A program made the position numbers and the translations under genes. The notes below the pieces were generated by a model. It was not told the origin of the DNA and did no database searches. It was given only the letters and a program-made list of their open reading frames with translations. Below are positions 3,460 to 52,410 of a DNA stretch of 64,000 nt, piece after piece. How positions within the stretch are numbered: the stretch's first letter is position 1; each line of letters starts with the position of its first letter. Where the stretch lies: NCBI GenBank assembly GCA_964016885.1, contig OZ024754.1, positions 22,010,001-22,074,000 on the forward strand, read 5' to 3'. This stretch comes from Eledone cirrhosa (taxonomy: Eukaryota).

Positions 3460-3495
<36 letters not shown>

Positions 3496-12089: not shown

Positions 12090-12156
12090 TATTTTATTAT
12101 ACATATTTCAGAGGTACTGAGCTATCTTCAACAGTACGTCCTCATCAGATAAAATA
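12090..12156 (-). ncRNA. Type I hammerhead ribozyme (pLTR)
   Basis: Reverse complement of 15910-15976. Confidence 0.85.
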
Positions 12157-15465: not shown

Positions 15466-15507
<42 letters not shown>

Positions 15508-15909
15508 CATCATCTAATTATACGCTATTTATCCACGACAATACAAATCTCCCTCCCTATGCTTTATACTATAAAAAATATTCTTCCTTGTCTCTCTATC
15601 CTTAATCAATTCTCTATTGCTTTCGTGCATAAGATATTTCTATACTTCTAGTAACTATCTTTTTCCCCATCTGTTTCTCTCTCTGTCTTTCTTCTTTCTT
15701 CAATAATTTAAATTATTTGAATCTCTAACAGTTATGTAAATTGCTATTATGTATTTTTATAAGCTTTCTCACACGCACCCTCTGTATTATATGTAATTTT
15801 TTCATGTATCAATCTTAAGGTATATAAATATTGAGTTTTGTCATATCTTATTCCCCGCTATGACTGAATCTTAACTATCTACTAAGTCAGGGTATGTCAT
15901 GCATCATCT

Positions 15910-15976
15910 TATTTTATCTGATGAGGACGTACTGTTGAAGATAGCTCAGTACCTCTGAAATATGTATAATAAAATA
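15910..15976 (+). ncRNA. Type I hammerhead ribozyme (inverted pLTR)
   Basis: TATTTTAT-CTGATGA-GGAC GTACTG..CAGTAC CTCT-GAAA-TATGTA-TA-ATAAAATA; 8-bp stem I. Confidence 0.87.
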
Positions 15977-16020
15977 TACTTGATCACACGAATGTCTATT
16001 TTTGTTAATATTTTGAATTA

Positions 16021-16051
<31 letters not shown>

Positions 16052-16483: not shown

Positions 16484-16489
<6 letters not shown>

Positions 16490-17958
16490 CATCATCACCG
16501 TTTTACGTCCGTTCTTCCACGCTAGCATGGGTTAGACGGGTTGTCCTGTTGTGGGCAGTGTCTGGTCGGCTGACCATGCCTTGCTCATACAGGAACTGAT
16601 CTGGCTTGATTTCTACAGCTGGATGCCCTTCCTAACACCAACCTCATTTACAGTGAGTGCTGGGTGCTTTTTCGTGGCGCCTACACGTCCACTTTACAGT
16701 GTGGGCTGGGTGCTTTTTTGCCGTGGCACCTCCACGGCCACCTTGCGGTGGGGGGGGGGGGCATATTGTTTATATGCTTCAGCATGTACCCATGGGAGGT
16801 CGGGTACCCTGTATTACTGCGTGACGCCAGAAGTCACGGTCGTGTGTCATTGACTTTGAGAGGTGTAGTTGGGTAAGGTCGGCTTTTATCACCTCATCCC
16901 AAGTCATCTTGGGTCTCCCCACTCCGCGGTTTCCATCAACTTCTAGTGCTCTGCACCTTTTTATGCAGCTGTCATCCTTCATACGCATCACATGTCCATA
17001 CCAGCGTAACCGCCTCTCCTGCACGCAGCATTTGATTCCTTTTATGCTCAGTCTCTCTCTCAATTCCTTTATGCTTTGTCGTTCACGTATATTACTGTTA
17101 CACATCCATCGGAGCATGCAGGCTTCGTTTCTCTCTAATCTACGTAAGTCTTCCACCTTCAGTGCCCAGGTCTCACTACCATGCAACATCGCTGTTCGGA
17201 TACACGCATCATACAGTCTGCCTTTCATTCTGAGGGAGAAGCCTTTTGCAGCTAGCAGTGGTAGTAGTTCCCTAAACTTCTTCCATCCCGTTCTTACCCT
17301 AGTTATTGTACTTTCTGAGCACCCACCTCCGTTGCTAATTCGGTCACCTAGGTAGCAGAAGCTGTCTACTGTTTCTACAGGGCCCTCCCAGAGATTGGTG
17401 GTACTTGTTTCCTGTGGCTGTTTGCTTGCTGTTTCAGCACAGCTGCTGCATGTGAATCCTACATTCTTAATTAAGCTTCCTGAGATCCCGCTACATCTCT
17501 TGTGTACCCATTGTTTGCATTTGGGGCAGAGAATGGAGTTCCTACCTACACCTTTCCTACATACTGAGCAAGGCCATTTCCCTGAGGGGATCTGGGTTCT
17601 GTTTTCTCGTCTACTTACAAGGACCTTAGTCTTTGTCATGTTGACTTTGAGGCCCTTTCTCTCTAGTCCCTGCTTCCAGGTTTGGAATTTATTCTCTAGT
17701 TCTACCATAGATTCAGCTATGAGTGCGAGGTCATCAGCATACAGGAGTTCCCATGGGCATCCGGTCTTAAACTCCTCCGTTATTGCCTGCAGGACTATGA
17801 TGAACAGGAGAGGGCTAAGAACAGAGCCCTGGTGGACCCCAACCTGTACGCTAAATTCCTCGCTATACTCATTGCCAATCCTAACTTTGCTGACTGCTCC
17901 CCTATACATGGCTTGTACCGCTTTCACAAGCCATTCATCTACTCCTAGTTTTCTAAGA
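16484..17958 (-). mobile_element. RTE-clade LINE, 5'-truncated, distinct subfamily, open ORF 16779..17958
   Basis: LLYADDL, PHD-like finger, [10 protein letters not shown], (ATG)n tail. Confidence 0.92.
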
Positions 17959-19092
<1,134 letters not shown>

Positions 19093-20974: not shown

Positions 20975-21454
20975 TGTATGTATGTACACGTACATACATA
21001 TATGTATACAGACGTACAGTAGTATGTATATATATATATACATATATGTACACATATATATGTACGTATGGATTCACCGAACATTTATTATAATGCTCGT
21101 TGTGTTTGTAAACAAACATCCCGAATTAAGCCGTACAGTGTCTAGCAACCATCGTTGCTCATTTGTTCAACACTGACAAAGGAACGCTGTACTAGTTTCA
21201 AGCTTATTAGCTATCGTCAGCAACGTATACCTTCCTGCCAGATGGTTGAACGTCTGAAAGTATATACTTTCCTTATGTATATTAACGGCTGAGCAGCCTA
21301 ATTTGCATATCAAGTGAGTTAATCGGCCGGGGTACCGAACTAGTACAGTGTTCCTTTGTCAGTATTGAACAAATGAGCAACGTGTACATACTTATATTTA
21401 GGTAACAGCCGTACTAAGAGTGAGAAATGAAATTTCGTTTCATTTTTTCCGTTT
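20975..21454 (-). mobile_element. Family A copy (minus strand) with inverted, internally deleted segment 21340-21454
   Basis: Homology to 3238-4051; HHR at 21184-21226(-) with CTGACGA core and stem I ACGTTG/CAGCGT. Confidence 0.85.
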
Positions 21455-21917: not shown

Positions 21918-21950
<33 letters not shown>

Positions 21951-21951
<1 letters not shown>

Positions 21952-24900
21952 AACGTTTGAATATGTATAATAAAGCCAAAACAATGCAGGTATGGACATA
22001 GAAAAAAGAATGCAATTGCAAAAGATATTGTTGACAATTCGTCTTTTACCTTAGATTTATTTAAATGTCCTTAATTTTCGAGATAATATCTCTTCTTCAG
22101 AGGGAAATAAAGGTCTCAAACCAGCGTTCTAAATATCTTGCCAAGCCATGCTGCCAGGAAATAGTATAGATTATCTGTTCTATCTCTAATGTCAAAGAGT
22201 TAAAATTAGGTGGATAAAGAGTAGTCTCCCTTTAAAAGGGGTTTGTTTAGGTTTTTTTTTATATACATGCCTGTTTAAGTGTGTGGGAGAATGCATGAAG
22301 GTGTGAGTGTGTGTGTGTGCGTGTGAGAAGATAAGTCTATTCGTAAATGTGGGGGATAGGTGTTATCTGGTGTTAGAACTGGTTTTGTGTGTGTATGTGT
22401 GAGAGAGAATAAGTGGAGGTGTAAGCGTGCGTGTGTGTGTATGGGGTGTGTAAATATAGGGCTAGAAGCCCTATCAGGTTATAAATTGGGTGTTGAGTTC
22501 TAGTCTATTATTGATAGGTGGTTGTGTTTTATCTATAATTAGTGCTTCCTTAATTCTAAGATTGCCGAGGTTTCTTTCCTTAGTTTCTATCCTAACTGTT
22601 ATGGTTTTGTCGGTGTTTTTGCATTTAACTAGGTGTTTCTTAAATGAGGAAGCGTTAGTATTGAGGTGTTCTTTTATTCTTATGTGGAGTGGTCTGGTGG
22701 TACTACCTACATAGAAGTTGTTGCATTTGTCACACTCTAGTCTGTATATGACGTAAGCCTGGTGGCATAGGTCTGTGTCGTTGATGGGGCAGTTGGCTAG
22801 TCTGCAGCAGTTGTCATGTCTGGTGGAGTGTCTTTTGGCTAGCTGTCCGCGCAGAGAAGGACCTGAGTGGGCCAGTTGGATATCTAGTCCTTCTCGTCTG
22901 ATGGCTCTGCGGATGGCTGTTGTTGTTTCTTCACTGAAGTGTGGGAGCTTCAGGAAGCAAGTGTTAGTGCCTCGGGTGTGGTGTCCTCTGTTCTTTCTGG
23001 CACGGTTTGTGGTGGATGTAGTGTATCCGTTCAGTTTGAGTACTTCCAGGAAATGTGTGGTGTGTGTGTCTCGGTCTCTGGCGTCGGTGCATTTGTTTTT
23101 GATACGTGCCAGTTCGTTCCTTATGTATCCGAACTTGGCACCGAGTGGGAGGGCCGATCTGAAATGTACGAACAGGTCCCTGCTGGCGGATTTTTTATAG
23201 AAGCAGGTGTGGATGTTGCCTTCCTCTGTTACCCTGAGTTGGAAGTCCAGCAGGGATAGGGATCCGCGGTCATCGGGGTATTCCATGCTGAACTTTATAC
23301 TGGCGTCCATGCTGGAGAATATTGTGTATATTTTATCTGCCTCCTCACGGGATGTAAGGATGAGTATGTCATCTACATATCGGGTGAAGAAGGCATGGGA
23401 ATGGCAGGTGTTGAGGGCTCGGTATTCTAGCTGGTTCATGTAGGTGATGGCCAGCAGGCCCGAAAGGCTGGATCCCATGGGTAATCCTGTTGTCTGTCTG
23501 TATGTGTGGTGGTGGAAGGTGAAGTACGTGTTGTCTACTGTGAAGGACAAAAGCTGGTGTATGTCCGTCGGGTGGAGGCCGTAGCAGTGGATGTTCTCTG
23601 CGACCACGCAGTCCGTCAATAAATCGACAGCTGGGTGAGCGGGGACTGTAGTGTAGAGGGAGACAACGTCGAGGCTAAAAGCGTATTTATTTAGTTTAAG
23701 TTGTTCTGGCTGGAGTTGGTGTAGTCTACGTATGACTTCGTCGGAGCTACTGACATGCCCGGGAAAGGTGGAGAGTAGAGGCTTGAGGACCTGGGAGAGA
23801 AGCCAGGAAATTTTGTATAGGGGTCCTTCTATGCTAGAGACGATGGGTCTTATTTGCGTCTTAGTGCTATTCTTGTGGGTCTTGATGAGGTGGTAGAAAG
23901 TGGGCAGCCTGCTATTTCTAGTGGTGTAGTTGAGCTTAACTTTATTTGGGAGTTGTCTTCTCCTACAGATATCGAACCAGATGGAGTTGGTCTGTTTTTC
24001 GATCTGGGCTGCAGTCATGTCCGGCATCTCTGTGTATAGTTCATTGTCGCTTAGGTGTTCAAAGGCTAGGTTATTGTATGTGGCTTGAGAGATGACGCAA
24101 AACTCTTTACCTTTGTCGGATGGTAAGTATATAAGTTCCTTATTCCGTAGGTTCTTCAGGGCGAGTTGTTGTGTCCTGGAGAGGTTTGGGGCTATCTTCT
24201 TCTGTTTCCGTAAGATGTTAAATACGGAATGTTTTAGTCTCGAGAGTTTTTCTTCAAGCTCGCGGTTGGCAGGCGGTGGCCAGAGTGGGTGATCTAGTTG
24301 GTATATCGGGAATCTGGGTTTGATAGATTCCGTGGTGTTGTTGCCGAGAGTCGATATCCATTTTAGTTGGTATGCAGCCCGACAGAAATTCGTTACTATG
24401 TCGAGCCATAGTTTGTCATCCAGTCTCTGTTTCAATATGAACTTGGGACCCAGGCTGAGGAGGTCTAATTCCTCTCTTCTATAAAAAAGCCGCCAGCAGG
24501 GACCTGTTCGTACATTTCAGATCGGCCCTCCCACTCGGTGCCAAGTTCGGATGCATAAGGAACGAACTGGCACATATCCGGAACAAATGCACCGACGCCA
24601 GAGACCGAGACACACACACACCACACATTTCCTGGAAGTACTCAAACTGAACGGATACACGACATCCACCACAAACCGTGCCAGAAAGAACAGAGAACAC
24701 CACACCCGAGGCACTAACACTTGCTTCCTGAAGCTCCCACACTTCAGTGAAGAAACAACAACAGCCATCCGCAGAGCCATCAGACGAGAAGGACTAGATA
24801 TCCAACTGGCCCACTCAGGTCCTTCTCTTCGCGGACAGCTAGCCAAAAGACACTCCACCAGACATGACAACTGCTGCAGACTAGCCAACTGCCCCATCAA

Positions 24901-25803
24901 CGACACAGACCTATGCCACCAGGCTTACGTCGTATACAGACTAGAGTGTGACAAATGCAACAACTTCTACATAGGTAGCACCACCAGACAACTCCACATA
25001 AGAATAAAAGAACACCTCAATACTAACGCTTCCTCATTTAAGAAACACCTAGTTAAATGCAAAAACACCAACAAAACCATAACAGTTAGGATAGAAACTA
25101 AGGAAAGAAACCTCGGCAATCTTAGAATTAAGGAAGCACTAATTATAGATAAAACACAACCACCAATCAATAATAGACTAGAACTCAACACCCAATTTAT
25201 AACCTGATAGGGCTTCTAGCCCCATATTTACACACCCCATACACACACACGCACGCACACACACACACGCTTACACCTCCACTTATTCTCTCTCACACAT
25301 ACACACACAAAACCAGTTCTAACACCAGATAACACCTATCCCCCACATTTACGAATAGACTTATCTTCTCACACACACACACTCACATACTTACACCTTC
25401 ATGCATTCTCCCACACACTTAAACAGGCATGTATATAAAAAATATATATTAAAAAAACCCTAAACAAACTCCTTTTAAAGGGAGACTACTCTTTATCCAC
25501 CTAATTTTAACTCTTTGACATTAGAGATAGAACAGATACTCTATACTATTTCCTGGCAGCATGGCTTGGCAAGATATTTAGAACGCTGGTTTGAGACCTT
25601 TATTTCCCTCTGAAGAAGAGATATTATCTCGAAAATTAAGGACGTTTAAAATAAATCTAAGGTAAAAGACAAATTGTCAACAATATCTTTTGCAATTGCA
25701 TTCTTTTTTCTATGTCCATACCTGCATTGTTTTGGCTTTATTATACATATTCAAACGTTTATACCTCATTACACAATGCTTCAAGTGAACTATAACCTCC
25801 TCC
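21951..25803 (-). mobile_element. PLE (YVDD type, Penelope/Poseidon-like) with ~1.25-kb inverted duplication
   Basis: Minus-strand ORF, then plus-strand inverted copy 24476-25759 of 21951-23203. Minimal HHR-like motifs at 22067-22105(-) and 25605-25643(+): CCT-CTGAAGA-AGAGAT..ATCTC-GAAA-AT-TA-AGG. Confidence 0.92.
22474..24478 (-). CDS. PLE RT + GIY-YIG endonuclease, 5'-truncated, uninterrupted
   Basis: SDKG, KTHK, IRPIVS, SLDVVSLYT, GLPMGSSLS, RYVDDI, VIYRLECDKC..YVGST.R. Confidence 0.9.
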
Positions 25804-30058: not shown

Positions 30059-31963
30059 ATGGCGGAGCCACGCCCCCTAGAGGCGGGTCTGCTGTCGTGC
30101 AACGGCGACTTGAGCGTTGAGAGGAGAGGTGGGGCGAGGAGCGCCACCAGCACGAGTGTGAGCAGCGACAGTGCCAGCACCAACGGGCCGAGCGGCGCGG
30201 AAGGTGGTAACAACGACAACACCAACACCAACAAGCCGAACAGCGCAGAAGGTGGTAATAGCGAGAGCACCAACAAAACGAACAGCACAGAGAGTAATAG
30301 TAGCGACAGCAGCAGCACCAACAAGGCCAACAGCACAGAGGGTAACCACGACACAGGGGAGAACAACAACAGCAATAGCAGCAGCAACACCAACAAGAAC
30401 AACAACAGTGACAACAAGAACACCTTCGCTGCTGTGGCAGCGGCTAAAAGGAGACCATGCTACAGCACCGACTTAACCAACAGAGAGGAAAAGTTGGCCC
30501 AGGCCTGGAAAATCATAAATCAAGAGCAGACCTGGGCAAACTTAACTGTCCCGGCAGAAGCCATTGAGGCAGTGGAAAAAAGAACGGTGCATTTCAGATG
30601 CATCTCAGTAGAGACAAAGAGGGCAGCGATAATCGCCCAAGCTGATATAGAAGCCGCACTGAAATACATCAGAGAGGACACAGACTTCATAGAGAGGGGC
30701 AGGCAATACGGCACCGTTTCGGTGCTGTTCAAGTCTGAAGCCCTCGCTGTGAAGCATTCAATGACCCCTTGCAAAACCAGCAAGGTCATAATGTACCCCT
30801 CCCACATGGGAAAACGAATAGCACGTGTGCGCATTCCCAGGATTCCACCAGGACTTGATATGTGGTGGCTCCTGGGTTGCGTAATCGTGGAAGGAACGGA
30901 TACAGTCCCGGTAGAGGCAACGAGAACTGCCAGGGACGACTGGTCCGGGGTTGATCTGGAGATACTGCTCCAAATCAGACCCGAAAACATAAAAGCAATC
31001 CCGGACCACATCCGCCTCCAAAACGGGAGGGTGTTGCATATAATGACTGAGGGCAAAAGGCCGCATTGTTTCCTTTGTGGGGAAACGACACACTTGCGAG
31101 CCTTCTGCCCTCAACTGCCGAAAAGCGCAAGGGGTTGAAAGATTCCACTGCTGGCGACGCCGGGACAAGGACCACCAGCAACACCGTCAACAATGGAACC
31201 ACCAAAATTGCACACCCAGGGGGGAAACGAGGAAAGCTCTCCCATTCCCCCTCCCACCCAAAATACACACACGAACAAGAACATAAACACTCACTCAGAC
31301 ACAAACACGCTCACAGCCACAGACCCCTCATCCTCCAGCAGTGAAGATGAGGGAAAACCAAAGTCCCCCAAAATACAAAAAACAAAACACAAAAAAAAAA
31401 GAAATCCACAAAGCACAAACACCCCCACAAAAAAAAATACACACACCACCCACACAAACACTTTCCCCACAGCATCACCAACACAACCACCAAAATCCCC
31501 CAAACGCAAACAAGCTAAACAGACACAAGAACAAATAGACACACAAACATCAGAAACTACAGACACCCCACCCACAACAAACGCAGACACAATAGAAACA
31601 ACACTAACAAAGCTATCACCTCCACAATCACACGAACAAATAAAACCCGAGCAACAAAACATTAAAAACTTCGTGCTTGCCAGAAGGGCCAACAAGGAAT
31701 TGATGGCCCATGTAGCACGAAGCACAAACATCGAAAAAGAGGGGGAAACATTTGAAGCGAGCACATTTCGCGTACCAGATAATTTGCTTCTGATGCGAAT
31801 GTCGCTCGCTTCATACAAAGAAATTCGAAAGAGCTTTCCTCGGGATGTGGGAACCCCGAACGTAAAACCCACTTCAAGACTATTAAAGGGGTTCCCAAAA
31901 GAAACCCCACAAACCATGGAGGTCGAACCACCCGACCTTCACAAGACCCCGGAAGGTAAGTAA
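30059..31963 (+). CDS. L1/Tx1 ORF1 (gag-like, CCHC zinc knuckle) with one in-frame TGA at 31136-31138
   Basis: CFLCGETTHLRAFC. ORFs 30059-31138 and 31193-31963 are in the same frame (offset 1134) and the intervening codons are open. Confidence 0.8.
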
Positions 31964-31992
31964 ACCTTTCCTCTCCCATTCATCCTGCCAGC

Positions 31993-34900
31993 ATGGCCAT
32001 AAGAGTAGGAAGTTTAAATGTTCGTGGCCTGGGGTCGCCCTGGAAGCAAGGTCACTTGCTCAACGACCGCAGGTCACTAGGAATGGATGTAATTGCCATC
32101 AGCGAGACCAGAATTTCCGACACACGCGCACTGGCGCCGATTTTCGATGATTATCAGATCTTTGCATCTGTTAGTCGGCCGGGAATGGGAGGTGGAGTGG
32201 CTGTGCTGTTTAGGAAATGTCTGGATCTCGAGGTAAGGTCAATCTTCCGGGATCCTGACGGAAAGTTGGTGGTCCTGGACGTGAGCAATAGCGAAGGTGG
32301 TGCCTTTAGACTGGTGGCCGTCTACGCCCCTACTGGGGCCGGTCGGCCGGACTTCTTTAGGCGCCTGGAAAACTTTCTGCTTACGTCTCGCCCTTTACTG
32401 TTAATAGGGGATTGGAATGGCATCTTAGAAGCACGCTGGGATTGTGTGGGAGTATCTGATAGGAGCGGGGGGTGCAAAAGCCTCAAGTACCTGATCAGCC
32501 AGTTTCAACTGTCTGACAGGTACCGACTAGATTTCCCTAATGCGCCAGTATGGACCTGGATCAATCGCATAGGGTCATCTAGATCGTACATAGATAGGAT
32601 TTTCATTAGGAAAAGAGATAGAAATAGTGTAGGATGTCCACATTTTAAAACGGTTGCCTATTCAGATCACAAGCTTGTGATCTGTATGGTCGACCTAGAT
32701 AAGACACGTAGGTTAGGACCTAGCTACTGGAAGCTAAACATGTCGTTTCCGGCACGTAGAGCTTACAGGGACCGGGTCAACAACTTAGTTAAGCAAAAGT
32801 TGACAGGGGGGGTTGTCAACAACAGGTGGTGGGGGGCTCTCAAAAGAGAGATTAGAGCAACCTCGATAGGATTTAGCAAAGAAGTAGCAATAGAGAAAAA
32901 TAGAAAGGAGGAGGGGCTGATAGCTAAGTTAGACGAGGCTATTTGTAGTGGCATTGCAACAGACGTGCTAGCGGCGAGAATGGCACTAGATCATTTCTTC
33001 AATGCGAAACACGAAGGTTGCATTGTTAGAGCTAAGGCGCGTGCTCTGAGGAACGAGGGAACCAAAGCTGCCCGATGGGCTCGCTTTGCAGAGACGCAGC
33101 GTGGAAATAAAACCACAATTCGGTCTTTGACGGATCGAGATGGACACGAACTGAGCGATTCCAAGCAGATGTGTGAGGCCTTTCGTCAGCACTTTGCTCG
33201 ATTGTTCGGGAGGATGGGTGAGCCGGAGACGGCGGCGGACTTCAGTCCCTACCTCGACGGCTTGCCACGCCTCTCGACGGCCGACGCTGAGCGCTGTGAA
33301 GAGCCAATAACATCAGTCGAAATTCAGGACGCCCTTGTCGGCTGCTCGAGTCGCAAGTCACCCGGTTTGGATGGTCTGCCCTACGAGCTTTACGTAAATA
33401 TGCCAGACTTGTTCTCCGATCTCCTCGAAGCGCTCTACTGCAACTGGCAGCAGAACGGGAGCATTCCCGGTTCTGTGAGCCATGGCGTAGTGACGCTGAT
33501 AAGGAAAGACGAGAACAAGAGGGACACACTAGATAATTTCAGGCCCATAACCCTGCTCAACACAGAGTTTAAGATTTTGGCCAAGGTGTTAGCGAAAAGG
33601 TTGGCGCTTGTCGTCAAAGATTTGGTTGGGGAGGCGCAAACTTGCGCAATCCCGACCAGGTCCATACACGACAACCTCCACCTCATGCGATACATCATAG
33701 AGAGGGTTGGGTGCAAACCTGGCTTCGGTGGGGCTCTGATCAATTTAGATCAATCGAAAGCATTCGATAGGGTCGACCATCGGTACTTGGAGGCTGTCCT
33801 CGAGGCGGCTGGCTTTGGCCCCGTCTTCAGAAGCTGGATCGCTGCAATGCACAGCTGCACATGCTCGGTGGTCAAGGTTAATGGCCACCTCTCGGAACCA
33901 TTTCAGATCTCTCGATCGGTCCGTCAAGGGTTCCCTCTCTCTTACCTTCTGTACGTACTGACTCTCGAGCCTTTACTGCGGAAGCTGGAGCTGTTGCAGG
34001 GCATCCCACTTGAACCGGGACGTGGAAAGGTGGTGTCGGCTTATGCGGACGACATCACCGTGATGGTGTCGGACACCTCGGAAATCGAGGTGATCCGCAC
34101 CCATTTGGAGGAATATGAAAGGTTGACGGGAGCAAAACTTAACCCGGAAAAGTCGGTGGGCTTGCAGCTCAGAACCTGGAGAGGCAAGTCCATGCCGTCC
34201 AACAGCGCCGTTGGGCGCTGGACAGACGGACCGGTAAAGTTGCTCGGGGTTTGGTTCGGACCAGACCTCCAGGTGGATAAGAATTGGGACGAGGTGACGA
34301 GCAGGATAGCCAACCTCACCCAGAAATGGGCTGAGAGAAAGCTATCACTGAAAGGGCGGGTGGAGGTGGCGAACGCGTACATCGCGTCCGTCATCTACTA
34401 CCGCCTGACCGTCGTGCCTTGCCCCCGTCCACGCCTCGCCAATTTGGAACGGCTCCTTTTCAAATTTTTGTGGAGGGGACGGGTCCCGTTGGTGAGGCGG
34501 TCCATCTGCTGCCAGCACCCTCTTCGTGGAGGGCTGGGCATGCCGTGGCTAATGATGCGCAGACATGCGCTGAGGCTGCGACATCTCCAGATATTTTGCC
34601 TAAACGGTGAACAGGTGTGGTCGCCGTTTGTTAGACGGGCCTTTCCGCAGCTCATCTCTTTGACTGAGCTGCAGTCCTGGGTCAAGAAGAGACAGAGACT
34701 GGGCGACTGGCATCTGGAATGTTGCCAGGCGCTCACTGCACTCTGCAAGGTGGGCAATGCGGTCAGTGGAACTTCCACTCAAGATTTCTATAGAGGATTA
34801 GTGGAGGGCAAGTACGATGACGTACTAGGAGAGGCTCTAGGCGTCAACGAAGTAGAACTGACCAGTATGTTCCGGAGGACTTTCGAGCCGGGGACGATGG

Positions 34901-35412
34901 ATAACTTCCAGAAATCCCTCGCTTGGCAGTGCTACCGGGGGGCGCTGCCGGTTCGGGATAAACTCTACAGGCACGGAAGTGCTGTCAGACGAACCTGCCC
35001 GAGATGCGCGCAGAGCGACGAAACCGTTCTGCACGCACTCGTCCAGTGTCCGTGCATTGCTGACTTGTGGGGTTATGTCGAACAGCTATTGTCGCGTGTA
35101 GAACGGATCCGGCTATCGTCCGAGTCCATAGTGAAGATTGACCCACCGCCTTCTTTTGGTCAGGAAGGGCAGGCAATTTTCCTCTGCCTGGTGGCAGTAG
35201 CGAAAGAGGTTGCATGGTGGACCAGGTTGAAAGGACTGAAGACAGACACTTTTCTCTTCGGCCAATCCCTCATCAACTTCTTCAAGTTTCACTTGGAAAG
35301 GAAGGTGAGGGTGGAGAGAGAAGTGCTGCTCCCCAGTACATTTGCTGAAAGGTGGGTGAATGTGGCGAGAATGGCCTGCGTGAGTGGGCCTACTCTGATC
35401 ATGCACCTGTAG
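31993..35412 (+). CDS. L1/Tx1 ORF2: APE endonuclease, RT, C-terminal CCHC; intact 1139 aa
   Basis: SLNVRGL, ISETR, VYAP, GDWN, SDHK; KSPGLDG, NFRPITLLN, LDQSKAFDRVDH, AYADD; CPRC..ETVLHALVQC. Confidence 0.95.
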   Translation: MAIRVGSLNVRGLGSPWKQGHLLNDRRSLGMDVIAISETRISDTRALAPIFDDYQIFASVSRPGMGGGVAVLFRKCLDLEVRSIFRDPDGKLVVLDVSNSEGGAFRLVAVYAPTGAGRPDFFRRLENFLLTSRPLLLIGDWNGILEARWDCVGVSDRSGGCKSLKYLISQFQLSDRYRLDFPNAPVWTWINRIGSSRSYIDRIFIRKRDRNSVGCPHFKTVAYSDHKLVICMVDLDKTRRLGPSYWKLNMSFPARRAYRDRVNNLVKQKLTGGVVNNRWWGALKREIRATSIGFSKEVAIEKNRKEEGLIAKLDEAICSGIATDVLAARMALDHFFNAKHEGCIVRAKARALRNEGTKAARWARFAETQRGNKTTIRSLTDRDGHELSDSKQMCEAFRQHFARLFGRMGEPETAADFSPYLDGLPRLSTADAERCEEPITSVEIQDALVGCSSRKSPGLDGLPYELYVNMPDLFSDLLEALYCNWQQNGSIPGSVSHGVVTLIRKDENKRDTLDNFRPITLLNTEFKILAKVLAKRLALVVKDLVGEAQTCAIPTRSIHDNLHLMRYIIERVGCKPGFGGALINLDQSKAFDRVDHRYLEAVLEAAGFGPVFRSWIAAMHSCTCSVVKVNGHLSEPFQISRSVRQGFPLSYLLYVLTLEPLLRKLELLQGIPLEPGRGKVVSAYADDITVMVSDTSEIEVIRTHLEEYERLTGAKLNPEKSVGLQLRTWRGKSMPSNSAVGRWTDGPVKLLGVWFGPDLQVDKNWDEVTSRIANLTQKWAERKLSLKGRVEVANAYIASVIYYRLTVVPCPRPRLANLERLLFKFLWRGRVPLVRRSICCQHPLRGGLGMPWLMMRRHALRLRHLQIFCLNGEQVWSPFVRRAFPQLISLTELQSWVKKRQRLGDWHLECCQALTALCKVGNAVSGTSTQDFYRGLVEGKYDDVLGEALGVNEVELTSMFRRTFEPGTMDNFQKSLAWQCYRGALPVRDKLYRHGSAVRRTCPRCAQSDETVLHALVQCPCIADLWGYVEQLLSRVERIRLSSESIVKIDPPPSFGQEGQAIFLCLVAVAKEVAWWTRLKGLKTDTFLFGQSLINFFKFHLERKVRVEREVLLPSTFAERWVNVARMACVSGPTLIMHL

Positions 35413-35719
35413 GCTGGTGAATTCGAGAAGGAGAGGGGTGCCCTTCCCGGGTGCCCTAGGAGCGTCGGGTGGCTCAGGACTGGTGGGGTGCTTGAGTCAA
35501 CCCTGGGTGGTGATCCCTCTTATTGGGGAACTTTCATTGTTGTATTTTTATTGTTATTTTGTTTTTTGTTATTTATACTTACTCGATCTCTATGTAAACC
35601 CCCACTGTCCCTGTCTATTGTGTTGTCCCCTATATGTCGGCCCTTGTGGCCAATAAATGAAATCATTATTATTATTATTACTATTATTATTACTTTTTTT
35701 TTTTTTTTTTTCCAATTCA

Positions 35720-38700
35720 ATGATGTTCCAGAACAATATAAAAGAGATAATTGGCAATTTAGGTTCTGGAACAAAAAAGATCATTGGCAATAAGGGCAGG
35801 GGCCCCAGGTTATCACAGCCTGGGCCCGCTCGTCATCGTGCCATTGTAATAGAGCCAAACAAGGCATTTAGTCTTGGCTGCTGGAACGTACGGACGCTGC
35901 TTGACAGGGATTCCTTGGGGCGTCCTGAACGAAGGACCGCTCTAGTTGCAAAGGAGCTTCGACGTTACGATCTTGACATCGTGGCTTTATCTGAGACGAG
36001 GTTAGCTGGAGATGGTCATCTTACGGAATTTTGTGGAGAATATACATTCTTCTGGAAAGGAAGAGATGAAGGAACCAGAAGAGAGGCTGGGGTAGGATTT
36101 GCTGTTAAGACTGTGCTTGTGAACAAATTAGAAGAATTCCCAGTAGGGATTAGTGAGCGTCTTATGTCCATGAGAGTTCCGCTGGACAAGGGAAGATATG
36201 CTACCCTGGTGAGTGTGTATGCTCCAACTATGAGTTCTGTCGATGAGGAAAAGGTGTCCTTTTACCATGCCTTGAAAGGTGTTTTAAGAAATATCCCTCA
36301 GGCAGACAAAGTCATCGTGCTTGGTGACTTTAATGCTAGAGTGGGTAGGGATTTTAACACATGGAATGTAATCGGAAGGCATAGGGTGGGACAGTGTAAC
36401 AGCAATGGTATGCTCCTGCTGCAGATGTGTGAGGAGCTGGATCTGTGTGTTACCAACACCATGTTCCAACAAAAGAACAAATTCAAGACCACATGGATGC
36501 ATCCTGCATCTAAGGAATGGCATCTTTTGGACTACGTCCTAGTCAGGATGCGTGACAGACAGGATGTGCAGTGTGTTTGTGTTCTTCGTGGAGCTAAGTG
36601 CTGGACGGACCACCGCCTGGTACCCGCAAAAGTGAAACTAATCACTAAACGTAAAATCCGGGCTCCTGGTGTTGCCCTGCCCAAAAGATTGAATGCTGCT
36701 CGTCTTAAGGATAAAAATGTGAAGAGGACATTGGAAGAAGAGATGCAGGCTGCAGATCTTGGTGAGGATTGGCCGACCCTTAAAAAGTCGGTTTATGATG
36801 TAGGCAGGCGTGTTCTGGGATTGGCGCAGAGGAAACATCAGGACTGGTTTGATGAGAATGATGTACATATAGAAGACTTGTTGGCTGATAAGAGGCGTGC
36901 TCTGTCACGCTACTTGACGGCAAAACCACAGGAGAGGAATACGTTGCATGAGGAACTCAGGGATGTAAAATCACGTGTTAGGCGGAGTCTTTCTCAGATG
37001 AAGGATCAGTGGTGGAGTGAGAAGGCTGGTGAGATACAAACTGCGTCTGATTCCAATAACACAAAGCTGTTGTACAGTCTCTTGCGTGAGGTTTATGGAC
37101 CGTCTTCTTCTCTGGTGACACCGCTTCGCAGCAAGGATGGCAAAGAACTTCTTCGTGACTCACAAGGAATTCTACGAAGGTGGTGAGAGCACTTTGATGA
37201 TCTTTTGAATCAGCCGTCTGTCGTCAGTGAAGATTTCCTCAATCTCATTCCAGAAAGTCCTGTGAAAGTAGCTCTCGCAGAACCTCCGACGCTTGTGGAG
37301 GTTGCAGTGGCTATTTCGAAGCTGAACAGTGGAAGATCTCAAGGTATGGATGGCATACATGCTGAGCTCCTACAATATGGTGGTGAGAGACTCCTGCAAC
37401 ATCTTCACTCTTTGTTTGGAAGGATATGGGCTAATGAATCCGTACCTGAGGACTGGAGAGATGCAGTAATGGTGGTCTTGTACAAGGGAAAGGGTAACAG
37501 GAACGATTGTGGGAACTACAGAGGTATATCATTGCTTTCTGTCGTAGGGAAAGTTTTATGTAGGGTGCTTCTGGACCGTCTGCTGACACACATTGCAGAT
37601 TGTGTTCTTCCTGAAAGTCAATCTGGTTTTCGTGCTGGACGCGGCACTACTGATATGATCTTCTCAGCTAGACAGCTCCAGGAGAAGTGCATGGAACAAG
37701 GCTTGGATCTGTATCAGGTTTTTGTCGATCTGACAAAAGCTTTCGATACTGTTAACAGAGATGCATTGTGGAAGGTTCTCCAGAAACTTGGTTGCCCTGA
37801 TAAGTTCCTTGCTTTAGTTAGGTCTTTCCATGACGACATGAAGGCTTGGATTAATGTCGGGGGTAACATGTCGGAGCCTATCTCAGTAAAAAATGGAGTG
37901 AAACAGGGGGATATTCCAGCACCGACCCTGTTTGCCATATACTTTGCAATGGTTTTCTGTATTGCATTCAGGAATAGCGAGCATGGTGTTTACATCCGAT
38001 ATCTAACCTCAGGCAGCATATTCAACATCAGGCGCTTTGCTGCGAAGACAAAGGTATTTACATCAATCATAAGAGATCTCTTGTATGCAGATGATTGCGA
38101 TCTTGTAGCGCACACAGAGAGTGATATGCAGCACATTTTGAATACATTTTCTGACGCTTGCACTGCCCTAGGTCTGACTGTCAGTCTCAAGAAAACCGTC
38201 GTCATGTACCAACCTGCCCCTGGTAAGCAGTACACTGAACCAAACATCTATGTGTATGGCAAACGACTTGGAGTGGTTGATCAGTTTGTCTACCTGGGAA
38301 GCACTGTCAATCGATACAGCAACCTTGACGGTGAAATCTCACTTAGGATTAGGAAAGCAAGTGATGCTTTCGGAAAGCTAGAAAGGCGACTCTGGGGTCG
38401 GCGAGATATATGCAGGAAGACAAAGGTAAAGGTGTACAGGGCATGTGTGCTCTCTTGTCTTCTTTATGCCTGCGAGACCTGGGTCACATATCGACACCAC
38501 TTTAAGCAATTGGAGCGTTTCCATCAGATGTGTTTCAGACGGATCCATGGCGTTCACTGGAGGGACCACATCAGTGATGTCGAGATTTTGGAAAGCTCTC
38601 TGTGTGACAGTATAGAAGCTCTTGTGCTTAAGCAACGACTCCGTTGGAGTGGTCACCTTGCCAGGATGAAGGATTCTAGAATACCAAAACAACTCTTTCA

Positions 38701-39265
38701 TGGAGAGTTGTTTAAAGGAAAACGACCGCCACATAAACCAAAAAAGAGGTATAAGGATTCCTTGAAAGCCTCTCTGAAATACGCTAACATCTCTGCTGAT
38801 ATATGGGAAAATATTGCTGCTGATCGTAATAAATTGAGAAAGACTGTATATGAGGGAAAAGTTGCCTTTGAGGCATCTCGAATCGCATACGAGAAAGTAA
38901 AGCGGGATGTGAGGAAGGGCATTGCTGTTGCACTTCCAGACGGCGAAGGTCCTCCTATGGTGCTGACATGCAGCGTATGTGCGAGACTCTGCCTAAGCAA
39001 AGCTGGACTCGAAAGTCATCTTCGCAGTCATAAAGTAAGACCAGTGGTTGACTACCAGGCTGCTGTTGGAGATGCTACTCATCATGCTTGCCAAACAAGT
39101 GGTAGAGAATGTAAATCAGCAGGAGGGCTCAAGCGACATGCAAAAGTACACGAACTCCAACCACAGCCGACTATTCCCAGTGAATGTTTTGGTTGCCGAC
39201 TCTGTGCAAGACATTTTAGATCATTGGCTGGGCTAAAAAGCCACATTCGATCGCAGCGCTGTTAG
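35720..39265 (+). pseudogene. RTE EN-RT ORF with a single in-frame TGA (37184-37186) and three C-terminal C2H2-like fingers
   Basis: WNVRTL, LSETR, GDFNARVG, WTDH; FVDLTKAFDTV, GVKQG, LYADD; the two listed ORFs share a frame (RW*EHF). Confidence 0.9.
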
Positions 39266-39577: not shown

Positions 39578-39584
39578 TTCTTCT

Positions 39585-39767
39585 TTTTTTTTCTCCTCGT
39601 GCAATGGCCATACTCGATAACGAGGGGGCAGCCATCATATATATATATATATATGTATATATCATTTTTTCATCATTTTTTTGATGAAAAAATGATATAT
39701 ACATATATATATATATATATGATGGCTGCCCCCTCGTTATCGAGTATGGCCATTGCACGAGGAGAAA

Positions 39768-39775
<8 letters not shown>
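39585..39775. repeat. Long fold-back palindrome (~90-bp arms) of the RTE 3' terminus plus flank
   Basis: TCTCCTCGTGCAATGGCC...TTTTTTCATC is mirrored by GATGAAAAAA...GGCCATTGCACGAGGAGA around ~39678. Confidence 0.9.
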
Positions 39776-39832
<57 letters not shown>

Positions 39833-39847
39833 TATATATGAGAATAG

Positions 39848-39929
39848 ACTCCCTGATGACGCAATGAATTCTCGACAGTTGGATTATGTAACTGTCTTTA
39901 TCCCATTGCAGAAACTAATTAGTTGGAGT
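39848..39929 (+). ncRNA. Type I hammerhead ribozyme (family B)
   Basis: ACTCC-CTGATGA-C GCAATG..GACAGTT/AACTGTC..CATTGC A-GAAA-CTAATTAG-TT-GGAGT. Confidence 0.85.
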
Positions 39930-40401
39930 GAAAATTTAAGTAAGTAAGTAAAAAAATTTTTAAAAATTTTTTTAAAAAATATTTTCTTATTTTACGTCTT
40001 TTATATTATTGTTCTGCACCCTCCTGCATTGAACCACCTAGGTACTATGACATAACCTGTGTATTTGCTGGCATGGACGTGCATCTGTGCGCCTATGTTA
40101 GTTGATATATTAAATTATCTATATTTATCTCCAAATCACTGATTTGTCGAGCAAACCTGCCAAAACCACTTCAAAATTTTTTTTGGGGTGTTAGTAGGCG
40201 TCAGTCATCTTACCATCCCATTCCTTCTAACTAGCCTCTATGTCACGTGATTGATTCTTTAGAATCGGCCATTTGACTGGAAGCAGTGAGAATTTCAGTA
40301 CATAGAATCCAGTCCTCGCCTAGCTGTTCTTTCTACCGAATTATTATTTTTATATGAGCCGCCAGTGTCCGCGCATTGCCTGGAGGCTCAGCTGAGAATA
40401 G

Positions 40402-40483
40402 ACTCCCTGATGACGCAATGAATTCTCGACAGTTGGATTATGTAACTGTCTTTATCCCATTGCAGAAACTAATTAGTTGGAGT
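40402..40483 (+). ncRNA. Type I hammerhead ribozyme (family B, second copy)
   Basis: Identical to 39848-39929. Confidence 0.85.
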
Positions 40484-40555
40484 GAAAATTTAAGTAAGTA
40501 AGTAAAAAAATTTTAAAAAATTTTTTTAAAAAATATTTTCTTATTTTACGTCTTT

Positions 40556-40642
<87 letters not shown>

Positions 40643-40689
40643 ATATACATATATGTATGTATATATATATATATATATGTATATATATG

Positions 40690-40720
<31 letters not shown>

Positions 40721-40805
40721 GTATATATATACATATATGTATATATATGTATATATATATATATGTATATATATACATATATGTATATATATGTATATAT
40801 ATATG

Positions 40806-40852
<47 letters not shown>

Positions 40853-41793
40853 ATATATATATGTATGTATATTGGAAAATGTGTGTAATCCTTGGTACAG
40901 TTAGGTATATTAAGACAGGGGGAAGAAAAAATGGCTTCACTTGTGCTTTCAACAAATTTATTTTCTTCACAAAATCCCAAAAGAATTTTTCTTAAAAAAA
41001 ATTATTTTATAAATTAAGTTGTTGGTTGTTGGTTAGGTCTTAGGAGTTCTTGTTTAACGTAGGAGGTATTGTTTCGTTTTTAGAAAAACTTTTCACGCTG
41101 AGGTGCGCTTGTCAAACTGATGTGTATGTGGTGTGTTGTTCTATATATAGGGATTTAACATGTCTGTGGTGTGGTGGGGGTTTCTTTTCTCCCCCTTTAA
41201 TAAGTGCATGGGTGTAGGTGTGTTGAAAAAGTGTTCATAGCAGTAATGAGTTGAGACGGTGAGTAGGGTTGGGTGGGGAGAAATGTAGCAAGTGCGGCCT
41301 GCCCCGGTCATTCTCGAAAAATTCCTTTATTCAGGGGAAAAAGCTTTTAGCATTGCTTTTGTGTTGAGAATGGTCACAGGCAAATCGCACCTGTCAAGTT
41401 TGTGAATAATTATTTTTTTCTTCTTTTTTTTCCCTGAAGAATTTTTCTACGTCCATCCCAAAGTTAGTCCTTCGTTCAACACACACATATGTGCGCATAT
41501 ACGTACATACACACACGGGCATATGTAGAAATATATAGGCACACACCATCAATCACACACCCATGCACAAATACATCCACATACATACACAAAAACATAT
41601 AGAGACACATATAAAAACACACATATACATACGTACACACACGAATATGTACTCATACCTCCACATGGGTATATATATATATATATACATACACATACAC
41701 ATATACATATATATATATACACATATATATACATACATATACACATACACACACATACACACACACATATATATATATACACACACATATATA

Positions 41794-43879
41794 TCATCAT
41801 CATCATCATCATCAACGTTTAACGTCCGTGTTCCACGCTTGCATGGGTTTGGACGGGGGTAGTCCCACTTGAGGCAAGAGTGATTGTCTTGCTCGCATAG
41901 GACTGTCTGGCAGGTTTTCTACAGTTGGATGCCCTTCCTAACACCAACCACATTTACAGTGTGGGTCTGGGAGGTTTTTACCGTGTTGCCTACACGGCCA
42001 CATTACAGCGTGGACTGTGTGTTTTTTTGTCGTGACACCTACACGATCTCATTTGTTTCGGCCTCGATGGCGCGGCACCAACATAACTTTACATAGAACG
42101 GGGTGGTGTGGATCGGGTGGGGGTGGTGGGACGGGGTGTATTTGTTAGAGATGCCTACTGGCTGGAGTAGGTTTTACTATATATTTAGGTAAGGCGGGTC
42201 TTCTCTGTTACTGAGTACCGCCAAAGGTCTCGGTCCAGTGACATTGTCTTGGAGAGGTGTAAGTGTGTGATGTCGGAGTTTATCAGCTCGTCCCAGGTTT
42301 TTCTAGGTCTGCCTATTCCGTGACTACCGTCTATCTTTATTGCCCTGCACTTTGTTATACAGCTATCGACTTTCATGCGCATCACGTGTCCATACCAACG
42401 TAGCCTTCTCTCGAGTAAACAACATCTGATCCCTCTTATCTCTAATTTATTCCTTAGTTCGTTTATGCTTTGCCGTTCACGTATATTACTGTTACACATC
42501 CAGCGGAGCATGCAAGCTTCGTTCCTCTCTAGTCTGCGTATATCCTCTGCACACAATGCCCAGGTCTCACTGCCATGCAGCATTGCTGTTCGTATGCAGG
42601 CATCGTACAACCTGCCTTTCATTTTTAGTGAGAACCCTTTAGCAGCTAATAGTGGTATAAGCTCTCTGAACTTTTTCCAACCAGTTCTGACTCTAGCTAC
42701 AGTACTTTCAGAGCACCCTCCCCCACTGCTGATTTTATCGCCCAGGTAACGGAAGCTGTCCACTATTTCTATAGAACCCTCTGCGCAATTGAAAGAGCTA
42801 GTAGTTTGTGGGCACTTGCTGCTACTTATTGCACCAGAGCACCGGCCACATGTAAAATCTATGTTCTTAGTTAGCCTACCTGTGATCCCACTACATCTTT
42901 TATGCACCCATACTTTGCATTTAGGACATAAAATGGAGTTTCTACCTACGCCTTTCCTACACACCGAGCACGACCATTTCCCAGAAGGGACCGCCGCCTT
43001 GTTTTCTTTCCTACAAACTAGTACTTTGGTCTTAGCCAGGTTAATTTTAAGTCCTTTTGACTCTAGGCCGTGCTTCCATGTTTGGAATTTCTTCTCTAGC
43101 TCGGCCATTGATTCCGCTATGAGTGTCAGGTCGTCTGCGTATAGGAGTTCCCATGGGCAGCCTGTCTTGAACTCCTCTGTTATGGCCTGAAGGGCAATAA
43201 TAAATAGTAGTGGACTGAGAACAGAGCCCTGATGGACGCCGACTTTTACGCTAAACTCTTCACTATATTCGTTGTTAATTCTAACCTTGCTGACTGTTTC
43301 TTTATACATGGCTTGTATAGCCCTCACAAGCCATTCGTCAACGCCTAGTTTTCTAAGAGCCCACCAGATAATGGAGCGGGGGACTCTGTCGAAGGCTTTC
43401 TCCAAGTCGACAAAAGCTAAGTAGAGGGGTTTACCTTTAGCTAGGTACTTCTCTTGTAGTTGTCGTACTATGAAAAGAGCGTCTGTGGTACTTTTGCCTG
43501 ACACAAACCCGAACTGCATTTCATCTAGGTCAATTCTCTCTCTGATTAGTTGCGCTATTACTCTTTCCGTGACCTTCATGACCTGGTCGATTAATTTAAT
43601 GCCTCTATAGTTACTCCTATCTAGGGCGTCTCCTTTACCCTTATAACAGTTAACGATGATGCTGCTATGCCAGTCCTTCGGAACAACCCCGTTTTGTACG
43701 ACTTGGTTAACTATGCGGGTGACCATGGTGTGTCCCACCGTGCCAGATGCCTTCAGCATCTCAGCAACTATTTCCGAAGGCCCAGCCGCCTTACCAGTCT
43801 TCATATCCTTGATTGCCTTACTTATTATACTCCCCTCGACTAACACTGCTGGTCCCTCTATTGGGTCGATATGGGGGAG
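41794..43879 (-). mobile_element. RTE-clade LINE, 5'-truncated, nearly identical to 1-1868
   Basis: Open ORF 42185..~43877; one visible aa change (GKL vs GRL); (ATG)n tail. Confidence 0.93.
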
Positions 43880-44118
43880 ACATATACATATATACATACA
43901 TATACATACATACACACACATAAAAATACATAACTAAATATACATATATACACATACACACACACACACACGCACGTGTATACACACACACATATACATA
44001 TGTCCGCATATATACCCCTCCGTTCACACATACATGCATACACACACACACATACACACATACATCTATATATATATACACATATAAAGAGAGAGGCATA
44101 CACACACACACATACACA

Positions 44119-44395
44119 TACTTTCAGATATTCAATCATCTGACAGGAAGGTACACGATGCTGACGATAGCTAATAAGCTTGAAACTAGTACATCGTTCC
44201 TGTGTCAATGTTGAACAAAAAGGTAACGGTGGTTGCTAGACACTGTACGGCGTAATTCGGGCTGTTTGTTTACAAACAAACCGAACATTATAATAAATGT
44301 TCGGTAAACCCATACGTACATATATATATATATGTGTGCATGTATGTATATATAAATACATACTACTGTACGTCTGTATACATATATGTATGTAT
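44119..44395 (+). mobile_element. Family A partial copy with intact HHR at 44155-44197
   Basis: ACGATG-CTGACGA-TAGCT AATA AGCTT-GAAA-CTAG-TA-CATCGT. Confidence 0.85.
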
Positions 44396-48934: not shown

Positions 48935-49687
48935 TTATGTACACGTACATACATATATGTATACAGACGTACAGTAGTATGTATATGCATACATACATGC
49001 ACACCTATATATATGTACGTATGGGTTTACCGAACATTTATTATAATGTTCGGTGTGTTTCTAAACAAACAGCCCGAATTATTAGCTGTACAATTATTAA
49101 CATTATAATAAATGTTCGGAAAACCCATACGTACATATATATATGTGTGCATGTATATACATACTACTGTACGTCCGTATACATATATGTATATACGTGT
49201 ACATACTTATATTTAGGTATCAGCCGTACTAAGAGTGAGAAATGAAATTTCATTTTTTCCATTTATCATTCACGGTACGCCCGGCCGACTAACTCACTCG
49301 ATATGCAAATTAGGCTACTCAGCCGTTAATATGCATAAGGAAAGTATATACTTTCAAACGTTCACTCATCTAACAGGAAGGTATACGGTGTTGATGACAG
49401 CTAATAAGCTAGAAACTAGATCATCGTTCCTTTGTCAGTGTTGAACAAAATGGCAACGATGGTTGCCGAACTCTGTACGGCTTAATTCGGGCTGTTTGTT
49501 TACAAACAAACCGAACATTATAATAAATGTTCGGTAAACCCATACGTACATATATATATGTGTGCATGTATGTATATATATACATACAACTGTACGTCTG
49601 TATACATATATGTATGTACGTATACATACTTGCATTTAAGTATCAGCCGTACGAAGAGTGAGAAATGAAATTTCATTTTTTTCATCT
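48935..49687 (+). mobile_element. Family A partial tandem with inverted 5' segment (48935-49082); HHR degenerate
   Basis: The TACTAAGAGTGAGAAATGAAATTTC segment occurs twice (~49227, ~49650). HHR at 49385-49427 has a TTGATGA core and GAAACTAGAT. Confidence 0.82.
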
Positions 49688-50233
49688 ATATTTCATTCGT
49701 CGGACAATGGCCCGTTGATAAAGTTATTCCGGTCCCTCTTCTCCCTAGAAGTCTTATATATTTTTATGTGGGCTGATAGGGGACGGATTAAGGAATAGCA
49801 GAAACCCAAGAAGCTAGATTTACCACCTGTCTAGTGGATCCGGGTAAGCTTTTTACATTCATATGATTTATTGATTTATTGATATTTTATCTGAGTGACC
49901 CGAATCTTCTTGGTCGTAATTTTTCGGCTGCACGGGTGATTTTAGGCATAATCTTTGTGTGTTGGTATCTTAACGATAGTTATAGCTCTGATTTATCTGA
50001 ATTATTGAGCCCTCTGCCACTCATGTCGGATTTTGTTTATCGTAAATTCGTGAGCTGATTTTTCGATACTCGATTATTCTATTATATATGTATGTATACA
50101 TATATATATATGTGTATGTGTATATATATGTATGTACATATACATGTATGTATATATATATGTGTATATGTATATATATGTATATATATATATATATGTA
50201 TATATATGTGTATATATATGTATATATATATAA

Positions 50234-51746: not shown

Positions 51747-52410
51747 AACGCTGTACTAGTTTCAAGCTTATTAGCTTGAAACTAGTACAGCGTTCCTTTG
51801 TCCGTGTTGAACAAACGAGCAACGATGGTGGCTGGACACTACGGCTTAATACGGGATGTTTGTTTACAAACACACCGAGCATTATAATAAATGTTCGGTG
51901 AATCCATACGTACATATATATATATGTGTGCATGTATGTATATATATATATACATACTACTGTACGTCTGTATACATATATGTATGTACGTGTACATACT
52001 TATATTTAAGTAATAGCCGTACTAAGAGTGGGTAAATGAAATTTCGTTTCATTTTTTTCGTTTATCGTTTTCTGTGCACCCGGCCGATTAACCCACTCGA
52101 TATGTAAATTGGGCTACTCAGCCGTTAATATGCATAAGGTAAGTATATACGTTCAACAATCTGGCAGGAAGGTATACGTTGCTGACGATAGCTAATAAGC
52201 TTGAAACTAGTACAGCGTTCCTTTGTCAGTGTTGAACAAACGAGCAACGATGGTTGCTGGACACTACGGCTTAATACGGGATGTTTGTTTACAAACACAC
52301 CGAGCATTATAATAAATGTTCGGTGAATCCATACGTACATATATATATATGTGTGCATGTATGTATATATATACATACTACTGTACTTCTGTATACATAT
52401 ATGTATGTAC

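Follow-up and report, generated by a model that had tools for sequence, protein, structure and literature searches.

At positions 39839-40557 of the window (the whole 64,000-nt stretch of DNA that was analysed, which is animal sequence rich in retroelements and microsatellites) lies a real, well-preserved copy of a non-coding genomic parasite with a 554-nt unit (Table 1). The insertion sits in a microsatellite with (TA)n on either side, in which a target-site duplication (TSD) is not readable, and its 3´ junction has TATAT microhomology with the target. It is bounded by two direct repeats of 168 nt each, spaced by 554 nt. These had been described as identical copies of ~165 bp; the direct repeats are there, but they differ at a single place, T39961 versus A40515, at the boundary between a T-run and an A-run. 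One difference in 165 bounds their divergence at 0.02-3.3%, which lends weak support to the proposed youth of the insertion, as a recent member of an older family that is itself diverse. The longest ATG-started frame in the element has 27 codons in both linear and circular reading, in agreement with the non-coding interior that had been claimed, and the GC content of the unit is 0.37, i.e. below 50%. No tRNA gene was found in the element, and an ORF for reverse transcriptase (RT) and GIY-YIG is absent between its repeats. Two complete hammerheads are present 554 nt apart, but the 1.3 units fall short of two full ones. The element begins 9 nt before stem I, and double cleavage at the predicted sites would release a monomer of exactly 554 nt, both as foreseen and the latter in line with the anatomy and the family data described below.

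Table 1. Features of the element and of the Penelope-type element (PLE) in the window. Hammerhead parts are given for the first repeat; those of the second lie at +554.
Feature	Positions	Strand	Basis
Whole insertion, 1.3 copies of 554-nt non-coding unit within (TA)n	39839-40557	+	sequence, repeat comparison, frame scan
5´ terminal redundancy (first repeat); final letters TA-like, common to flank	39839-40006	+	repeat comparison
3´ terminal redundancy (second repeat), one mismatch to first	40393-40560	+	repeat comparison
Predicted monomer freed by double cleavage, 554 nt	39925-40478	+	motif positions, folding
Internal non-coding hairpin region	40005-40392	+	folding, family variants
Left flank, (TA)n target microsatellite	39776-39838	n/a	sequence
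Right flank, (TA)n/(TG)n target microsatellite	40558-40870	n/a	sequence
Type I hammerhead 1, predicted cut after 39924	39848-39929	+	motif, folding, shuffle scan
Type I hammerhead 2, same sequence, predicted cut after 40478	40402-40483	+	motif, folding, shuffle scan
Stem I, 5 bp	39848-39852/39925-39929	+	
CUGAUGA box	39853-39859	+	
Stem IIa, 6 bp	39861-39866/39904-39909	+	
Stem IIb, 8 bp, beyond internal loop	39874-39881/39889-39896	+	
GAAA box	39911-39914	+	
Stem III, CUAAUUAG	39915-39922	+	
12-nt perfect palindrome (second copy 40467-40478)	39913-39924	+	sequence, folding
Candidate pseudoknot, leader strand (second copy 40394-40399)	39840-39845	+	complementarity
Candidate pseudoknot, partner strand in 5´ internal loop of stem II (second copy 40422-40427)	39868-39873	+	complementarity
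Two-sided pair changes among family variants	40076/40093, 40240/40278, 40304/40330, 40359/40386	+	variant list
5´-truncated PLE, not part of element; inverted pLTR copy, minimal hammerheads, ~41-nt tail, (TA)n flanks	21950-25800	-	
RT (RVT_1) + GIY-YIG of window PLE, open 680-codon frame	22474-24516	-	domain match
Hammerhead cores of window PLE	22100; 25610	-; +	

Motif search and folding agree on the extended stem II and on a predicted cleavage site of GUU type in each repeat, as originally predicted. GUU sites are cleaved more slowly than GUC sites. Stem I is the open stem, which makes the hammerhead type I and not the type III of plant LTR retrozymes. The core had been called canonical, which overstates the case because C39860 and A39910 oppose each other as a mismatch at the base of stem II. 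Stem III is palindromic as described, with a palindrome of 12 rather than 8 nt, and this can form a 10-bp stem III shared by a dimer, or 3 bp and a tetraloop in a monomer. The strict motif occurs twice in the window versus 0 times in 100 block-wise dinucleotide shuffles, and a looser scan gave 12 occurrences versus a shuffle mean of 0.05. Rfam returned no hammerhead match over the element at E up to 10, probably because the long stem II defeats the hammerhead model; three snoRNA matches had E 3.9-8.9, and over the window the 150 of 316 matches listed held microsatellite-driven miRNA noise alone. Pattern scans gave 0 matches in metagenomes and 0 in viral contigs. Twelve matches to an 18-mer were discarded as chance, none extending beyond 28 nt or continuing into a hammerhead, as was a sigma-70 scan (1 site versus 2.6 expected), which is irrelevant to a eukaryote.

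In build, the ribozyme resembles the hammerheads of metazoan PLE pLTRs. In these, helix I has 4-5 bp, helix II is long, the base that follows A9 is unpaired, G10.1-C11.1 is present and helix III is a palindrome; their activity in vitro was low (PMC4209133). The element has the short helix I, the long helix II, G10.1-C11.1 and the palindromic helix III; it also has the unpaired base after A9, if C39860 is that base, and an extra A before G12. Mismatches at the base of helix II, in the form of U·U, are tolerated in other natural hammerheads (PMC7229834; PMC3088659), e.g. axolotl HHR_Amex2 (PMC7229834).

Dimerisation through the palindrome, part of the original prediction, draws its support from folding energies. 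Folding of the 719-nt RNA into the dimer-active form is 4.8 kcal/mol less favourable than its free ensemble, whereas both monomer folds together cost 11.1 kcal/mol (6.3-7.3 for single monomer folds), such that a dimer is favoured on paper; stem III can also close as the 3-bp monomer hairpin. An inactive fold, in which the core pairs with the palindrome, is better by 3.0 kcal/mol in the isolated motif and by 3.8 kcal/mol in the circle, in energies that ignore tertiary contacts. The description of the element as the cleanest test substrate was thus too strong, given the stem II base mismatch, the GUU site, this competing fold, and the frog retrozyme dimers of which 1/9 was cleaved in vitro and 8/9 were not (bioRxiv 10.64898/2026.07.22.740005). 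The 554-nt monomer folds far better than its shuffles (z -4.4 linear, -4.0 circular) with 64% of its positions paired, and the internal region alone has z -3.3 on the + strand and -1.55 on the - strand.

Six nucleotides of the 9-nt leader that precedes stem I could pair with the 5´ internal loop of stem II, a match with a chance of ~0.017 when two flanks and three loops are allowed for in what is a post hoc count. Best runs in seven other hammerheads of the window reach 2-4. The two strands of this candidate pseudoknot are unchanged in a divergent contig, X4 record 11; no covariation between them was seen among the family variants. Pseudoknots between stem I and stem II strongly raise rates in tested cases (PMC3088659).

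Seventeen public sequencing runs contain some words of the element, three of them half or more. None of the seventeen is listed as RNA, which has no bearing on expression. Three of them (X1, X8 and X4) and a raw run of the same species (X18) were aligned to the element at 80% identity. X4 has a different organism code, and X4 and X8 are of unrecorded kind and were not treated as RNA. X1 has 1117 contigs on the element at 80-100% identity (253 at ≥99%, 311 at 95-99%, 383 at 90-95% and 170 below 90%). With the AT-rich tail and low-complexity stretches masked, its summed depth, which is no copy number, is 19,500-439,000 in all 25 unmasked bins, and rare single contigs have 13-15. We infer a family of hundreds to thousands of copies. 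Because depth is highest just past the junction of tail and internal region (40007-40054), this junction is a feature of the family; the peak might reflect a PLE-like tail of 30-50 nt, a point for which summed depth is too noisy. The depth dips at 40271-40342, where X8 record 14 and an X1 joint (40275-40338) show the segment exchanged for another of similar length.

Both internal junctions of the unit are also present in independent runs. One X4 contig (39918-40213; 1 other letter, 5 gaps) is unbroken across the 3´ repeat end and a second (40353-40485) across the 5´ repeat start; both fit head-to-tail DNA or a circle, which contigs cannot tell apart. One X8 contig exits into (TA)n at 40128, at another place of the unit. 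Because reads cover the whole unit including the head-to-tail junction, we are dealing with a unit-length family and not with a one-off pLTR remnant. Both repeats of the element carry T (39887/40441) where C makes up 96-100% of X1 depth. This common minority T fits a model in which both were copied from one template in one RT pass of more than unit length, although a subfamily difference, a species difference or conversion would give the same result. Read-end pile-ups in X18 were considered as signs of cleavage and rejected, since all six listed (of eight) fall on AATT sites and are enzyme cuts of a RAD library. A further contig, X4 record 9, shares the 3´ half of the hammerhead at 39897-39931 and has different sequence upstream; it represents a sister family with a different stem II, possibly closer to an autonomous partner.

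Variation within the family points to selection on RNA structure. The variants listed come from 40 of 131 rows, and most are unphased. Among 39 distinct listed variants, 11 are unpaired, 11 keep their pair, 13 break it and four are rescued by a listed change of the partner. The four two-sided changes compare with a null mean of 0.48 (P 0.005), while the depletion of pair-breaking variants in the same list is not significant (13 versus 16.2 expected, P 0.13). The change at 40359/40386 is phased in the single contig X4 record 11 and that at 40304/40330, by depth arithmetic, in two X8 contigs; the other two are unphased, and their majority form has G·U pairs. Both these G·U pairs and the better folding of the + strand suggest that the + strand RNA is under selection. 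X4 record 11 has 12 changes over 133 places, all of them outside the 44 that make up the core, stems I and III and the pseudoknot strands (P 0.006, post hoc); three substitutions break pairs of stem II, and the C·A opposition is retained. The compensatory changes suggest that the non-coding interior is selected as RNA.

Machinery of the kind that could mobilize such a unit is present in the same window. A PLE, truncated at its 5´ side by inversion and with a ~41-nt tail at one end, has the anatomy described for such elements (PMC8557442; PMC3846280). Among the 120 matches listed for its protein, Octopus bimaculoides provides the best named relative (62% over half of the length), which makes an octopod host likely. 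Penelope expansions in octopus have been reported (PMC8967140). PLEs are known to insert into microsatellites, where a TSD is not discernible (PMC8557442). The 3´ non-coding part of the window PLE is 524 nt, close to the 554-nt unit; neither blastn nor tblastn found homology between the element and this PLE, the single one in the window. Because the two have no sequence in common, the window PLE represents the candidate class of helper and not the parent.

The surroundings contain at least five other hammerhead families. One has a head-to-tail unit of ~460 nt (3237-4052, 21062-21453 on the - strand, 44118-44319, 49207-49695 and 51765-52338) and a compact type I ribozyme with a 6-bp stem I, a U·U base of a 4-bp stem II, a CUAG palindrome and a GUA site. 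Its copies start and end at differing positions of the unit and show a two-sided change in stem I; the copy at 3237-4052, with two ribozymes 462 nt apart, may equal the element as a test substrate. Inverted end sequence of this family forms a long hairpin at 49007-49142. A further hammerhead repeat occurs as an inverted pair at 12042-12735 and 15313-16024 (cores at 12148 on the - strand and 15918 on the + strand). Its ribozymes have an 8-bp stem I and an extended stem II and are 99% alike over the 323 nt that bear them; between the two copies are frames of 278 (no Pfam match) and 121 codons. Single type I hammerheads of different sequence at 44797, 52619 and 16279 (- strand), the first two shortly before a (TA)n tract, are probably solo pLTR ends of other PLE families.

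Nearer to the element, a near-perfect 190-nt foldback at 39584-39773, 65 nt upstream, has 92-nt arms, a nested (TA)n and an inner palindrome. It has no similarity to the element and no second copy of its arm in the window, and is possibly the self-primed, inverted stump of another mobile element. Two head-to-tail APE-RT LINEs lie on the + strand at 31960-35412 and 35657-39265. The latter, interrupted by one in-frame stop (37184-37186), carries C2H2 fingers at its C-terminus; its end lies ~570 nt upstream of the element, such that read-through could supply a + strand precursor. Four further LINE copies, all on the - strand (173-3424, 6202-7727, 16484-18893 and 41801-43933), belong to a family in which the RT is followed by a C-terminal PHD finger.

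We classify the element as a non-autonomous Penelope-type retroelement, that is, an animal non-LTR retrozyme, with a probability of roughly 0.85-0.9. This builds on its anatomy, the high copy number, the family-wide head-to-tail junction, the conservation of structure on the hammerhead strand, the insertion into (TA)n and the PLE machinery in the same genome, and it sustains the earlier view of a complete, retrozyme-like insertion. The original prediction had set a retrozyme against the pLTR of an RT-encoding PLE. This is no true either/or, since animal retrozymes are argued to be non-autonomous PLE derivatives (bioRxiv 10.64898/2026.07.22.740005).

The full path of a retrozyme, with cleavage and a circle, we consider the likelier course of events, at somewhat better than even odds. 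A + strand transcript would span both hammerheads and fold, probably as a dimer via the 12-nt palindrome and perhaps helped by the leader/stem II pseudoknot. It would cut itself after 39924 and 40478, and a host ligase would close the 554-nt monomer into a circle. RtcB-type ligation of retrozyme RNA is far better than self-ligation, and circles have been shown in coral, mussel and axolotl (PMC7229834). An endonuclease-bearing PLE would then nick (TA)n and prime at an AU-rich patch of the RNA, and its RT would copy more than one turn, giving the 1.3-mer; such reverse transcription of circles beyond unit length has been proposed as the origin of partial tandems (PMC4209133). Because the copying would run more than once round, the repeats would be a terminal redundancy and not LTRs, and only copies longer than one unit would keep two hammerheads and be able to seed new rounds.

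The alternative that survives best, although we think it unlikely, is that the same non-autonomous PLE-type family is copied from linear uncleaved multimers or read-through RNA, or by template jumps, with no need for a circle and with a hammerhead that is weak or active on occasion. The weak-looking core and the competing inactive fold fit this view, as do the low in vitro activity of PLE hammerheads (PMC4209133) and the uncut frog dimers. Naiad and most Chlamys PLEs, including non-autonomous head-to-tail copies, form partial tandems without a canonical hammerhead (PMC8557442). Linear copying accounts for every DNA observation made here, and evidence from DNA cannot separate it from the path through a circle. 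It explains less well why a divergent copy with another organism code has kept core, stem I, stem III and leader intact, and why structure is conserved over the full unit on the strand of the hammerhead, as is the case in circle-forming retrozymes.

Clearly less probable is the remnant of an autonomous PLE, either a partial-tandem pLTR or a rare internal deletion, without spread of its own. The PLE-type hammerhead and the closeness of the unit length to the 524-nt 3´ part of the window PLE would suit it; some helper must exist, and an ORF-bearing parent is possible given the masked stretches and the 19 of 244 loose ends listed. Against it, unmasked depth is nowhere near the single-contig level (13-15), replacement of a segment, not an ORF, accounts for the dip at 40271-40342, the tail-to-internal junction is common to many contigs, and there is no coding remnant. 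A satellite or minisatellite unit that is spread by DNA-level recombination and carries a relic ribozyme is more improbable still. The unbranched head-to-tail X4 contigs would fit a DNA array equally well, and frog retrozyme multimers are thought to grow via unequal crossover (bioRxiv 10.64898/2026.07.22.740005), but the copy studied here, a 1.3-mer, is dispersed and ends sharply in (TA)n, and the majority G·U pairs and the folding strand bias speak for selection on the + strand RNA. An assembly artefact or chance duplication, suggested by the very low-complexity flanks and a sole mismatch at a homopolymer boundary, is highly implausible because independent runs hold both internal junctions and the ~460-nt family has the same head-to-tail design at several loci.

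Returning to the retrozyme reading, one may combine its parts into a more far-reaching model, which as a whole we regard as doubtful. Here, the ribozyme would be a fast, pseudoknot-stabilised type I hammerhead in which the leader docks on the internal loop of the long stem II and may compensate for the C·A base and the GUU site. The insertion would start exactly at the leader because a shorter copy would no longer have two functional ribozymes. Once the circle is ligated, the leader would pair instead with an AU-rich patch at ~40343-40352 (predicted fold), and this sequestration would inactivate the ribozyme. Octopods would then contain the family as a very abundant, structured circRNA, alongside other hammerhead families that likewise depend on PLEs targeting (TA)n. 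PMC7229834 leaves open what keeps the circles of animal retrozymes from being cut again; if leader pseudoknot and sequestration hold, they would offer a simple model for circles that turn their own ribozyme off. A pseudoknotted build of this kind is not reported for animal retroelements in the portions of the literature covered. The closest tested case is the pseudoknot-stabilised hammerhead of PMC3088659, which likewise has Watson-Crick pairing between a stem I flank and a stem II loop (6 bp in the tested example, with at least 4 pairs needed for rate). That pseudoknot was tested in a type II metagenomic ribozyme, whereas the element's is predicted, involves an internal loop and lacks covariation. 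The element also differs from the pistol-like PK hammerhead (PMC11300833), where the pseudoknot replaces helix II.

Among known systems, the non-LTR animal retrozymes (PMC7229834; bioRxiv 10.64898/2026.07.22.740005) are the most similar. By definition, such repeats contain two or more complete type I hammerheads; units of 51-972 bp were found, and 24/57 frog families matched known elements, nearly all of them PLE termini (bioRxiv 10.64898/2026.07.22.740005). The element is alike in that its unit is non-coding and head-to-tail, with two type I ribozymes and a GC content below 50%. It also occurs in many copies and alongside PLEs, its circle is predicted to be self-paired, and its palindromic helix III lends itself to dimers. 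At 554 nt it is longer than the 150-450 nt given in 2020 (PMC7229834) and within the 51-972 bp of 2026; it has 1.3 units and a probable cephalopod host. Its hammerhead is PLE-built, with a 5-bp helix I and a long helix II, whereas non-LTR retrozymes have a 6-bp/4-bp form with a loop-loop contact, in place of which the element has the candidate pseudoknot. It has every sequence-testable feature of a retrozyme except two full units and an identified parent. No cephalopod retrozyme was found in the literature covered by title and start of abstract.

Compared with PLE pLTR hammerheads (PMC4209133), the element lacks the RT/GIY-YIG ORF between the repeats, has the extra A before G12, and carries on its helix II an extension made of an internal loop and another stem of 8 bp. 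The non-autonomous Chlamys PLEs MRC1 and Chlamys-N4 (PMC8557442; PMC9977147) are similarly non-coding and head-to-tail, with pLTR-like redundancy and a microsatellite target. They differ in a 3´ end that generally resembles the autonomous partner, in being mostly without canonical hammerheads, and in an algal host and (C)n/(CA)n targets. Plant LTR retrozymes also have two ribozyme-bearing direct repeats around a non-coding interior, with a monomer of 0.6-1 kb. Theirs are type III hammerheads within true LTRs, accompanied by PBS, PPT, a 4-bp TSD and Gypsy helpers, as opposed to type I and (TA)n in the element. In conclusion, the class of animal retrozymes is already described in other animals, and what we report is a further family of that class, one more in a known and widespread group, that extends it to a probable cephalopod. 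The still unproven link between retrozymes and PLEs also gains a concise example here: a 1.3-mer with a minority variant common to its two repeats, a PLE-type ribozyme, a (TA)n target and a PLE nearby.
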